Source: a virus. Taken from it: 64,000 nt of DNA. Under the pieces are notes generated by a model. The model saw nothing but the letters and a program-made list of their open reading frames with translations. It did not search any database and was not told the origin of the DNA. The DNA lies in the UHGV virus genome UHGV-1378516, one strand, 5' to 3'. Shown here one piece after another: positions 24,547 to 26,264 of this stretch (within the stretch, counting starts at the first letter, position 1; every line of letters starts with the position of its first letter). Both the position numbers and the translations under genes were made by a program.

Positions 24547-24618
24547 TGGTACTCCATATCGGATTCGAACCGATACATAACACAGATTTTAAGTCTGGCC
24601 TCTCTGCCAATTGGAGTA
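24547..24618 (-). tRNA. tRNA-like, atypical (short D-arm; anticodon possibly UAA)
   Basis: Clear T-arm ATCGG-ATTCGAA-CCGAT and acceptor pairing but only ~72 nt; anticodon arm ambiguous by eye. Confidence 0.35.
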
Positions 24619-24627
24619 ATGGAGCAT

Positions 24628-24703
24628 TGGCGGGGGATGTTGGAATTGAACCAACTTCTTCGATTTCAAAGACCGAGGTTTTAACCTTGTAAACTAATCC
24701 CCT
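24628..24703 (-). tRNA. tRNA-Gln (UUG), tentative
   Basis: T-arm GTTGG-AATTGAA-CCAAC; anticodon loop gives UUG. Confidence 0.55.
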
Positions 24704-24711
24704 TTAAATCT

Positions 24712-25269
24712 TTACTTTCTTAGTGGATGAATAAAGAATGCCAACATAACTCTTTCCCTTGAGAATGCTCTTTCTTCTGGGACAACGCTTTTAAGTTTCC
24801 ACCCAACATAAATTCTCCAGTAAAATTGTTTACCAAAGATTTTGATTGATGGCACAAAAGCGAATAACCCCCAAGCATTACTGTTCCACATTAGGAGATA
24901 ACCAGTTTGATTATCTTCAGGGTTAGAACTTACGTTGATATTACCTTTCCACTTAGTAACGTCTTTTACATCTCTTCCTAACACATGGTAAGAGAAGTTA
25001 TAAGCTTTGTTTCTCCAGAGCCATCCAACTCTCTGCATGTAGACACCAAGCTTACCAATCTTTCTAATCTTAGCCCATCGTTTGATATGACCTGCATCAC
25101 CATCAATTGGGTTGTCATAAGTCTCCATCCATCTGAACCCGAAAGGCAAGTGTCCTTTCTTCTCACTGTAGAATGGAACTACAAAAGGTGCTAAGATAAC
25201 TGCTAAGATTGCTGCAAATGGCTCTAACAAAGCTAAGAAAATCCATGAAGCATACTTTAAGTATCTCAT
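24712..25269 (-). CDS. hypothetical membrane protein embedded in tRNA array
   Basis: 185 aa, hydrophobic N-terminal segments (..WIFLALLEPFAAILAVILAPFVVPF..). Confidence 0.5.
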   Translation of the reverse strand: MRYLKYASWIFLALLEPFAAILAVILAPFVVPFYSEKKGHLPFGFRWMETYDNPIDGDAGHIKRWAKIRKIGKLGVYMQRVGWLWRNKAYNFSYHVLGRDVKDVTKWKGNINVSSNPEDNQTGYLLMWNSNAWGLFAFVPSIKIFGKQFYWRIYVGWKLKSVVPEERAFSRERVMLAFFIHPLRK

Positions 25270-25508
25270 TGTCTAATCCTCGTAAGGAGGTAAATGTTAT
25301 TATTAGTTTCTAAACCTTCTGGTAAAACTGTCTCAAAAATAACACTCTTCAGATGTCTACCACCAAAACAATCACGTATAAATCTTTCTACTCTAGCGGG
25401 GTCACATAAGTATCCCACTTTTAAGAAAATGTGGTGTTCAACACCAATGACCCTGACAAACTCAATACTCTCACAGTTTTCATGTTCAACTACTGTTAAT
25501 GTTTGCAT
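25266..25508 (-). CDS. hypothetical protein
   Basis: 80 aa, ATG at 25508, stop/start overlap with downstream ORF. Confidence 0.45.
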   Translation of the reverse strand: MQTLTVVEHENCESIEFVRVIGVEHHIFLKVGYLCDPARVERFIRDCFGGRHLKSVIFETVLPEGLETNNNIYLLTRIRQ

Positions 25509-25525
25509 AGTATCACCTTTTTATC

Positions 25526-25601
25526 TGGCGCAGGATAAGGGATTCGAACCCCTATTAACAGCTTCGTAGACTGTTGCTCTTTCCATTTGAACTAATCCTG
25601 C
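25526..25601 (-). tRNA. tRNA-Arg (ACG)
   Basis: T-arm AAGGG-ATTCGAA; anticodon loop gives ACG; perfect acceptor. Confidence 0.65.
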
Positions 25602-25606
25602 AAAAT

Positions 25607-25684
25607 TGGTGTTCCAAGACGGATTCGAACCGTCACTAATACAAGGTTTGAGCTTGCATCCTCTGCCAATTGGGATACTGGAAC
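25607..25684 (-). tRNA. tRNA with anticodon CAA (Leu-type) but short variable arm
   Basis: Perfect T-arm GACGG-ATTCGAA-CCGTC; 5-bp anticodon stem with U33/A37 gives CAA; A73; only ~78 nt. Confidence 0.5.
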
Positions 25685-25685
25685 A

Positions 25686-25760
25686 TGGTACTCACTAAAG
25701 GACTTGAACCTTTTTCTTCATCTTGTAAGGGTGATGTTTTACCATATAAACTAAGCGAGT
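25686..25760 (-). tRNA. tRNA-Val (UAC)
   Basis: T-arm AAAGG-ACTTGAA-CCTTT; anticodon stem TCATC/GGTGA; loop gives UAC. Confidence 0.65.
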
Positions 25761-25856
25761 ATGAAAGAGGTCTGGAGTTGTGCCGCTAACTCAACTCCGT
25801 GGAATTTGTTACGGTCTTCAGTTGACTCAAAGCGGTCTTTCACTTGACCTCTGAAT

Positions 25857-25932
25857 TGGTGCTCCCACAAGGACTCGAACCCTGATAAGTTGCTTACAAG
25901 GCAACCGTAATAACCAATTATACGATAGGAGC
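25857..25932 (-). tRNA. tRNA-Thr (UGU)
   Basis: Perfect anticodon stem GTTGC/GCAAC; loop gives UGU. Confidence 0.7.
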
Positions 25933-25939
25933 ATTAATT

Positions 25940-26014
25940 TGGAGCATCCAGAGGGAATCGAACCCTCAACCTCAGTTTGGAAGACTGTAATTTTCCCGTT
26001 TAAACTATGGATGC
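25940..26014 (-). tRNA. tRNA-Gly (UCC)
   Basis: T-arm GAGGG-AATCGAA-CCCTC; perfect acceptor; loop gives UCC. Confidence 0.65.
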
Positions 26015-26020
26015 ACTAAT

Positions 26021-26096
26021 TGGTGGAGTCACCGAGAATTGAACTCGGTTCCCAAGTTTGCAAAACTCGAATTTTAACCATATAAACTATGACCCC
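26021..26096 (-). tRNA. tRNA-Ala (UGC)
   Basis: T-arm CCGAG-AATTGAA-CTCGG; loop gives UGC. Confidence 0.6.
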
Positions 26097-26102
26097 AATG
26101 TC

Positions 26103-26178
26103 TGGTACAGGTGGAGGGAATTGAACCCATCGTCTTACTGATTAAGAGTCAGCCGCATAACCATTTTGCTACACCTGC
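26103..26178 (-). tRNA. tRNA-Lys (CUU)
   Basis: Paralogue of 27328..27403; loop gives CUU. Confidence 0.6.
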
Positions 26179-26185
26179 ATTAATT

Positions 26186-26264
26186 TGGTAGGAGACAAGG
26201 GATTCGAACCCTCAAGCATCTCGTTCTAAGCGAGATAGGTCTACCAAGTTGCCGTCAATCTCCC
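26186..26264 (-). tRNA. tRNA with anticodon UAG (Leu-type) but short variable arm
   Basis: T-arm AAGGG-ATTCGAA; perfect anticodon stem TCTCG/CGAGA gives UAG; A73; ~79 nt; D-arm irregular. Confidence 0.45.

Follow-up and report, generated by a model that had tools for sequence, protein, structure and literature searches.

Leucine tRNA genes without a long variable arm in a Felix O1-like phage and in the tRNA arrays of many other phages

Leucine and serine tRNAs have been described as carrying a long variable arm everywhere except in animal mitochondria (2023 review of tRNA identity; PMC9976931). Whether this rule holds in phages is the question raised by a stretch of 64,000 nucleotides (nt) from UHGV virus genome UHGV-1378516 (the window), in which the tRNA array includes three genes that combine leucine anticodons and an A73 discriminator with a variable region far too short for class II. 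A sequence-only reading that had drawn attention to these genes left three explanations side by side, namely that they are unusual class-I leucine tRNAs, that they are charged with another amino acid or that the hand folds were wrong. We have examined their folds, their leucine identity positions, their conservation and their distribution among viruses, and we consider it likely that they are functional arm-less leucine tRNAs of a type that is common in phage arrays and that would be charged by the host's leucyl-tRNA synthetase (LeuRS). The window belongs to a Felix O1-like phage of the genus Felixounavirus (Ounavirinae) and is AT-rich (G+C 37-41%). Positions 24200-26800 are 94-99% identical to phages of E. 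coli, Salmonella and Shigella, for instance AN17P8 (99.3%) and wV8 (97.8%), and the gene order of the array (Table 1) is syntenic with that of the annotated arrays of wV8, Felix O1, Sf14 and Sf15.

All three genes form a four-arm cloverleaf that scores above the threshold of the Rfam tRNA model RF00005 (gathering score 29 bits), and ARAGORN gives the same folds. In both sets of alignments UAA, CAA and UAG occupy positions 34-36 of a 7-nt loop, after U33, which rules out a wrong anticodon register as well as a long arm missed by eye; covariance-model folding thus revealed neither a different anticodon nor an overlooked arm, and with two programs in agreement the suggestion that the hand folds were at fault is refuted. 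Measured from the end of the 5-base-pair (bp) anticodon stem to the start of the 5-bp T stem, the variable regions are GUUAUGU (7 nt, UAA gene), AUUAGU (6 nt, CAA gene) and UGCUU (5 nt, UAG gene), with 4, 3 and 1 inserted bases, respectively, in the Rfam alignments. They are unpaired and none can form an arm, so that no gene of the three has the variable region of more than 10 nt with a stem-loop that marks class II. The central claim of the sequence-only reading, three genes with leucine anticodons and A73 but no long arm, is therefore borne out by both programs. Its estimate of 5-6 nt for the variable region was right as to shortness but must be widened to 5-7 nt, and its coordinates stand for the CAA and UAG genes, whereas the UAA gene begins at 24625 and not at 24618. 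The UAA gene has G1.U72, a 3-bp D stem, C13.A22, the D loop AAUUGGCAG and a C27.U43 mismatch, and the CAA gene follows the same D-arm design; the UAG gene has G1.U72, A37 and a D region of 22 nt with only two Watson-Crick D-stem pairs. As had been noted from the sequence, both Ser tRNAs and the Tyr tRNA of the same array possess a paired extra arm, and they serve here as internal controls. The three genes already bear the label tRNA-Leu in GenBank records, where the arm is not commented on.

Table 1. Position and character of the features of the window discussed in the text
Feature	Position	Strand	Description	Source
tRNA-Leu(UAA)	24547-24625	minus	79 nt (76 + encoded CCA)	ARAGORN; Rfam RF00005, 47.5 bits
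tRNA-Leu(CAA)	25607-25684	minus	78 nt (75 + encoded CCA)	ARAGORN; Rfam RF00005, 44.0 bits
tRNA-Leu(UAG), allele A	26186-26264	minus	79 nt (76 + encoded CCA)	ARAGORN; Rfam RF00005, 30.5 bits
tRNA-Ser(GCU)	23431-23523	minus	93 nt, paired long variable arm; internal control	ARAGORN
tRNA-Ser(UGA)	26519-26608	minus	90 nt, paired long variable arm; internal control	ARAGORN
tRNA-Tyr(GUA)	27915-28002	minus	88 nt, paired long variable arm; internal control	ARAGORN
Non-canonical tRNA-like gene, anticodon CCA (Trp)	26622-26704	minus	A1-U72, G73, encoded CCA	
tRNA array	23351-28562	minus	26 tRNAs for 19 amino acids, small open reading frames interspersed	ARAGORN
471-amino-acid protein	28728-30143	minus	DUF2828, DUF7788, weak VWA match; named 'RNA-binding protein' in wV8	
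461-amino-acid protein	32222-33607	plus	four immunoglobulin-like domains (Ig_3, E = 1.7e-43)	

The expectation that bacterial tRNA-Leu is class II is true for the host, since the four E. coli K-12 isoacceptor genes compared, leuZ (UAA), leuX (CAA), leuW (UAG) and leuQPV (CAG), are 85-87 nt long and have variable regions of 13-15 nt with a paired arm, as against the 5-7 unpaired nt of the phage genes. The body of the phage genes is nevertheless leucine-like. Common to phage genes and E. coli class II tRNA-Leu are the anticodons, A73, U8, A14-A15, G18G19, A20a, U48 and the encoded CCA; the G1.U72 of two of the three phage genes is found also in host leuZ. In leuZ, leuX, leuW and leuQ positions 8-26 comprise 20 nt, made up of U8, G9, a D stem of 3 bp, a 13.22 pair that is not Watson-Crick and the loop A14-A15-U-Y-G18-G19-U-A20a-G21, and the phage UAA and CAA genes have this stretch in the same length and register (U8, A9, 3 bp, C13.A22 and AAUUGGCAG, together with U48), sharing with the host both the D loop AAUYGGYAG and the non-Watson-Crick character of the 13.22 pair. 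Differences lie in the core, where A9, C12-G23 and C13.A22 of the UAA and CAA genes stand in place of G9, G12-C23 and G13.A22 of host tRNA-Leu. At position 37 the phage tRNA-Leu(UAG) has A37 (loop CUUAGAA) and host leuW has G37 (UUUAGGU), and because of this A37 the phage tRNA, as predicted from its gene, could not carry m1G37. A frequent occurrence of A37 marks viral Leu(UAG) as a whole; among the matches listed in the viral scans described below, it outnumbers G37 by 29 to 10 in short-arm Leu(UAG). In 5,426 complete E. coli genomes BLAST found nothing that matches the UAA gene.

These likenesses coincide with what the host enzyme is known to read. E. coli LeuRS depends on A73, A15-U48, G18G19, A20a and contacts of the D loop with the T loop, and not on the anticodon or the long arm; arm-deleted variants of E. 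coli tRNA-Leu stay active (PMC9976931). Every base of the tertiary identity set (U8-A14, A15-U48, G18G19, A20a) is present in the three phage genes, in the register of leuZ, leuX and leuW for the UAA and CAA genes and with a D loop 2 nt longer and a weakened stem in the UAG gene. Profile hidden Markov models for each isotype were built from some 1,700 viral tRNAs after the anticodons had been masked and the variable regions collapsed. For each of the three genes, long-arm Leu then scored best among the non-self models (28.0 vs 25.0, 21.6 vs 15.6 and 31.7 vs 21.7 bits). In phage Sf14 the tRNAscan-SE isotype scores in print likewise put Leu at the top (60.2 for Leu_TAA and 49.1 for Leu_CAA), in a report that never mentions the variable arm (2025; PMC12482277). 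The UAG allele found in the window, an allele with no isotype score in print, is called Leu-TAG by tRNAscan-SE in the Sf15 record. Comparison with related phages and with the host agrees with the fold: the D-arm register is that of E. coli tRNA-Leu, with A73, A15-U48, G18G19 and A20a in place. Of the explanations offered at the outset, that of unusual class-I leucine tRNAs is the one supported by fold and leucine-like body, with the isotype profiles, though crude, pointing the same way, and the three genes are thus predicted to be arm-less leucine tRNAs by their body as well as by their anticodon.

The codons that these tRNAs would read are used as leucine codons. At sites where the phage NrdD gene has TTA, TTG or CTA, E. 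coli NrdD has Leu at 9 of 21, against a background of 7.9%, so that by this alignment the codons behave as in the standard code. They are also well represented in the phage, in which leucine in the 54 long open reading frames (ORFs) of the window is encoded by UUA (27%), CUU (27%), CUG (15%), UUG (14%), CUA (11%) and CUC (6%). In E. coli, CUG accounts for about half of the leucine codons and CUA for about 4%. The codons read by the phage Leu tRNAs are more frequent in the AT-rich phage than in its host.

Conservation is strongest for the UAA and CAA genes. The CAA gene is identical in Felix O1, wV8, Sf14 and Sf15; the UAA gene is one base away from its Sf14 copy and differs by 0-1 bases from its Mooglevirus and Felix O1 orthologues; and the short length of the loop is conserved in all Ounavirinae orthologues examined. 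Relative to the Mooglevirus copies both genes show 0-1 differences, whereas the aligned non-tRNA DNA is 84% identical and the array tRNAs average 92%. Judged by these comparisons, the UAA and CAA genes are under strong purifying selection.

The UAG gene is less uniform. Two alleles occupy its site among close relatives, differing at 30-33 of 79 positions. One, of 77 nt and of regular arm-less Leu design, is found in wV8 and Sf14; the other, allele A, is carried by the window, Felix O1, Sf15, SUSP2 and DaR-2019a and was recovered in 162 records at a coverage of at least 80%. In allele A the D region, of 21-22 nt, contains only two Watson-Crick pairs in its stem as well as a mismatch (at 11-24 or 10-25); this irregular D arm is the reason for its low Rfam score. 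Its closest regular relative is the 77-nt tRNA-Leu(UAG) of the 112-kb coliphage KookSpook, which has the same T arm and a canonical D arm. Between phages the anticodon stem of allele A shows a compensated swap (UCUCG/CGAGA vs CCAUC/GUUGG) that leaves four of its five pairs intact as pairs, 30-40 becoming a U.U mismatch. Some GenBank records label the allele tRNA-OTHER or pseudo. We regard the UAG gene as probably functional, with less confidence than for the UAA and CAA genes; its fitness is the less certain because it is replaced by another allele in close relatives.

Arm-less leucine tRNAs are not peculiar to this group of phages. BLAST searches with the window genes and a T5-like homologue as queries found such genes, 74-78 nt in length, in many phage groups, including Demerecviridae (Hongcheonvirus, Shenzhenvirus, Sugarlandvirus), Vequintavirinae (Certrevirus PBES02), KVP40-like Straboviridae, Otagovirus of Pseudomonas, Saclayvirus of Acinetobacter and a Streptomyces phage. 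Two spaced-pattern scans of IMG/VR, followed by ARAGORN, yielded at least 331 unique viral tRNA-Leu sequences, which are a sample and not a census, so that no ratio of short to long arms can be derived from them. Among the matches listed, the length of the variable region is bimodal, with 149 unique sequences at 5-7 nt, 182 at 10-25 nt and none at 8-9 nt. The pattern for short arms also catches tRNA-Lys(UUU/CUU) in a shifted register, and 80 of the 120 viral loci listed for it truly carried a short-arm Leu. At the loci with short-arm Leu among the matches listed, 64 of 64 Ser tRNAs and 25 of 26 Tyr tRNAs kept their long arms, and in 32 viral loci short- and long-arm Leu occurred together. Viral Leu tRNAs often have G1.U72, whichever arm class they belong to.

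The constraint on short-arm Leu tRNAs was assessed from an alignment of 140 sequences less than 90% alike. A73 is present in 139, A14 in 139, A15-U48 in 133, G18 in 140, G19 in 138 and A20a in 137. Over the cloverleaf and the 15-48 pair, 96.7% of cells are paired, all 21 pairs show changes on both sides, and the covariation score of 0.959 compares with 0.218 for shuffles, none of 500 of which reached it, and with 0.11-0.18 when partners were slid. By the evidence of this alignment, short-arm viral tRNA-Leu is a real and constrained tRNA family. Most members, the UAA and CAA genes of the window among them, have A9, C12-G23 and C13.A22, in contrast to the G9, G12-C23 and R13.A22 of the long-arm viral and host Leu core; a minority, represented by the UAG allele of the window, KookSpook and Aeromonas phage Akh-2, keep the long-arm core, with G9, G12-C23 and G13.A22. 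The existence of two core designs in these viral tRNAs (IMG/VR loci L013-L252) suggests that there were probably at least two independent losses of the arm, one of them accompanied by a remodelled core.

Arm-less tRNA-Leu as such is already known, from mitochondria, from Streptomyces and from a mycobacterial tRNA cluster. In Streptomyces coelicolor a type I tRNA-Leu(CAA) with the 5-nt variable loop ACAGC exists beside long-arm isoacceptors; the single ScoLeuRS charges it and does not use A73 for identity (Fan et al., 2019; PMC6614811). In the viral family the commonest motif includes this loop (ACAGU 21 times and ACAGC 4 times among the matches listed). The Streptomyces tRNA differs from the phage genes in being a chromosomal housekeeping gene and in having C48, where the phage genes have A15-U48 and a D loop of E. 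coli-like length. One scan of bacterial genomes with the pattern for short arms, which gave mostly tRNA-Lys and shows presence rather than frequency, returned arm-less Leu in 12 of the 120 matches listed, notably in Actinomycetota, where single chromosomal tRNA-Leu(CAA/UAA) genes of this kind occur in Kutzneria, Nonomuraea and metagenome-assembled genomes (loci L293, L303, L321, L323 and L326). Their D arm, CCCAACGGCAGAGG, is the same as that of the commonest viral type, and these genes connect the phage family with the type I tRNA-Leu described from Streptomyces. For a tRNA cluster of Mycobacterium mucogenicum a single sentence, with no analysis, records a short-variable-loop tRNA-Leu(TAG) (Behra et al., 2019; PMC6582537); here, too, the arm-less gene lies inside a tRNA array, one that is horizontally mobile and has an HNH endonuclease, and a long-arm chromosomal copy is present as well, but this element comes from an actinobacterial host and is no characterised phage. 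Animal mitochondrial tRNA-Leu(UUR/CUN) shares the short variable loop and is identified by A73 and A14 with no arm (PMC9976931), yet has a degenerate AT-rich core, a dedicated mitochondrial LeuRS and no sequence relationship to the phage family. The tRNA-Leu(UAG) of phage T5, of which an anticodon-altered version is an amber suppressor according to a GenBank note, resembles the window genes in its A73, its Leu-type D loop and its place in an enterobacterial phage array, but at 85 nt with a 13-nt variable region it is class II; arm-less Leu tRNAs are carried by the other Demerecviridae listed above. A full-text literature search found no description of arm-less tRNA-Leu in phages, although an older one, for instance from the T5/KVP40 era, is possible. 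What deserves attention is how common arm-less tRNA-Leu is in phages, including coliphages.

How such tRNAs would work can be set out as follows. The three genes would be transcribed with the rest of the minus-strand array, and their products, which bring their own encoded CCA, would be leucylated by host LeuRS, given that bacterial LeuRS reads A73 together with the tertiary core (U8-A14, A15-U48, the placement of G18G19, A20a) and neither the anticodon nor the long arm. Charging by the host enzyme is proposed because no LeuRS of the phage was found: the 11 window ORFs of at least 330 amino acids that were scanned contain no synthetase domain, the longest ORF (788 amino acids) being shorter than E. 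coli LeuRS (860 amino acids), and a tblastn search with E. coli LeuRS matched 61 of 50,697 phage records, none of them from Ounavirinae among the matches listed, its organism tally leaving room for at most 4 of at least 315 Ounavirinae records. Nor was a tRNA-handling enzyme found beside the array, the ORFs in or adjoining it encoding DUF7338, DUF7217 and DUF2828/VWA proteins. The UAA tRNA would decode UUA and UUG, the CAA tRNA UUG, and the UAG tRNA CUA and CUG and perhaps all CUN codons, thereby supplementing codons favoured by the phage or lessening its dependence on host tRNA. Seryl-tRNA synthetase (SerRS) and bacterial tyrosyl-tRNA synthetase (TyrRS) bind the long arm, and bacterial LeuRS does not need it. 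Leucine would thus be the one long-arm tRNA able to shed the arm, because SerRS and TyrRS use it for recognition and LeuRS does not, and the retention of long arms in the Ser and Tyr tRNAs that accompany short-arm Leu is what this use of the arm predicts.

Several points weigh against this account. Charging and expression of the three genes are predictions from sequence only. The isotype profiles are crude, ranking the own isotype first for only 11 of 23 other tRNAs; single-sequence folding is unremarkable (z-scores of -0.5 to -1.8), the UAA tRNA even having a minimum-energy fold other than a cloverleaf; and the UAG gene has a weak D arm, lies barely above the Rfam threshold and gives way to another allele in close relatives. 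Most directly, E. coli LeuRS did not charge the arm-less tRNA-Leu(CAA) of S. coelicolor, the only bacterial arm-less tRNA-Leu to have been characterised biochemically (PMC6614811). The C48 of the Streptomyces tRNA could explain this discrepancy, since the phage genes have A15-U48 and a host-like placement of G18G19.

The same failure of charging is one argument for supposing that the genes are not working decoders at all but are decaying or give rise to RNAs with a role outside translation, as toxin decoys or sources of fragments, that are charged poorly or not at all. The degraded D arm of the UAG allele with its 30.5 bits in Rfam, the tRNA-OTHER and pseudo labels and the weak minimum-energy folds would fit such a view. 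Decay is hard to reconcile, however, with UAA and CAA genes that are nearly invariant across genera while their flanks diverge, with compensatory changes in every stem of the family and conserved tertiary and identity positions, or with a compensated anticodon-stem swap in the UAG gene that keeps four of five pairs. The CCA end and A73 are retained, and decoys would not need the full LeuRS identity set. We think it very unlikely that the genes are not decoders. That they are charged with an amino acid other than leucine, so that UUR and CUA are recoded, is extremely improbable. Nothing positive speaks for it, its basis being only the missing hallmark arm and the A35-A36 shared with tRNA-Phe, and the genes lack the G3.U70 of Ala, the G73 with long arm of Ser and the G34 of Phe, whereas the leucine identity positions are present, Leu isotype models rank at the top and TTA, TTG and CTA align with Leu or hydrophobic residues in NrdD.

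A different kind of explanation accepts that the genes decode leucine codons and concerns the reason for the missing arm. The arm may have been lost, and kept lost, because anti-phage effectors of the host recognise the long arm of class II tRNAs, which would make these tRNAs defence-proof replacements that sustain the decoding of Leu codons in infected cells. In favour of this view, the abortive-infection toxin AbiEii appears to prefer class II tRNAs (bioRxiv 10.64898/2026.01.19.700257), MenT3 anchors on the long loop of tRNA-Ser, and arm-less Leu occurs in at least two core designs and in the arrays of many unrelated phages. Yet no system is known that attacks the variable arm of tRNA-Leu in enterobacteria, short- and long-arm Leu are mixed at the 32 viral loci mentioned above, T5 keeps the long arm, the arm-less type is an ordinary chromosomal tRNA-Leu in Actinomycetota, and the data are accounted for no less well by neutral loss, to which LeuRS, indifferent to the arm, sets no bar. 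We therefore judge selection by host defence to be rather unlikely. The fuller version of the idea, a counter-defence device in which phages of many families shed the arm, at least twice independently, from the one class II tRNA whose synthetase can do without it, and the tRNAs became unrecognisable to effectors keyed to class II while E. coli LeuRS went on charging them, because A73, A15-U48, G18G19 and A20a are retained, seems to us unlikely; the effectors proposed for it are PtuAB-type nucleases, MenT/AbiEii-type nucleotidyltransferases and systems not yet described. Functional arm-less leucine tRNAs charged by host LeuRS remain the explanation that we favour.

A further unusual gene lies close by in the array. 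The sequence-only reading had noted a possible tRNA-Trp with irregular D-arm geometry at 26622-26704, and the element has indeed a CCA anticodon and an oversized D region and is a conserved tRNA-like gene. It is not called by ARAGORN at default settings, and its only Rfam match is a sub-threshold one to tRNA-Sec (23 bits); 231 Ounavirinae records contain it, and hardly any of them annotate it. Its sequence points to a probable acceptor stem of 8 bp and T stem of 4 bp in addition to the oversized D region. All 17 proposed pairs are kept in six sequences, including that of the distant Pectobacterium phage Arno18, and three helices show compensatory changes, namely at 1-72 and 2-71, at the first pair of the T stem and at all but one of the five pairs in the anticodon stem. 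As a tRNA-Trp it would probably supply the sole amino acid missing from the array and bring it to all 20.

Other members of the array also depart from the standard form in the ARAGORN predictions: in tRNA-Lys(CUU) (26103-26178, minus strand) the D stem has 3 bp, the variable region is longer and the T stem is mismatched, and in tRNA-Phe (24277-24352, minus strand) the acceptor contains a mismatch and the T stem has 4 bp. The alleles found at one site can be sharply divergent between otherwise near-identical phages, as for Arg-UCU (26847-26923), with 30 of 77 positions different from wV8, and, between alleles, for Thr (25857-25932; 16 of 76) and Ala (26021-26096; 18 of 76). HNH endonuclease genes sit between tRNAs in the arrays of relatives. 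The divergent alleles suggest cassette-like replacement within the array. A scan of the array for promoters and terminators gave 14 sites against 11.9 expected, no excess over chance; strong promoter-like sites on the minus strand lie upstream of the array (28709-28681 and 28618-28589) and at 27154-27126, the latter inside an array gap (26924-27228, minus strand) that gives sub-threshold Rfam matches to tmRNA_permuted (29.2 bits, E = 0.005) and tmRNA (15.7 bits). Directly upstream of the array is the gene for the DUF2828 protein, a domain that we take to be related to the TROVE domain of Ro60; if this kinship holds, the protein could have an RNA partner in the array gaps. The gene for the protein with immunoglobulin-like domains is among the few plus-strand genes in its part of the genome.

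The long-arm rule for tRNA-Leu thus fails routinely in phage arrays, including those of well-studied coliphage groups, and the textbook generalisation that the long arm is universal outside animal mitochondria is contradicted. There are practical consequences for annotation, such genes being mislabelled tRNA-OTHER or pseudogene in some records and the Trp-like tRNA being missed by standard tools. For the study of tRNA recognition the phage genes would provide a natural and diverse set of minimal LeuRS substrates, together with an account of why Leu alone, and not Ser or Tyr, sheds its arm. They pose a sharp question, in that E. coli LeuRS reportedly fails on the arm-less tRNA of Streptomyces, yet coliphages conserve arm-less Leu genes under strong constraint; and they suggest a connection, open to test, with the anti-phage systems, known in increasing number, whose targets are class II tRNAs.

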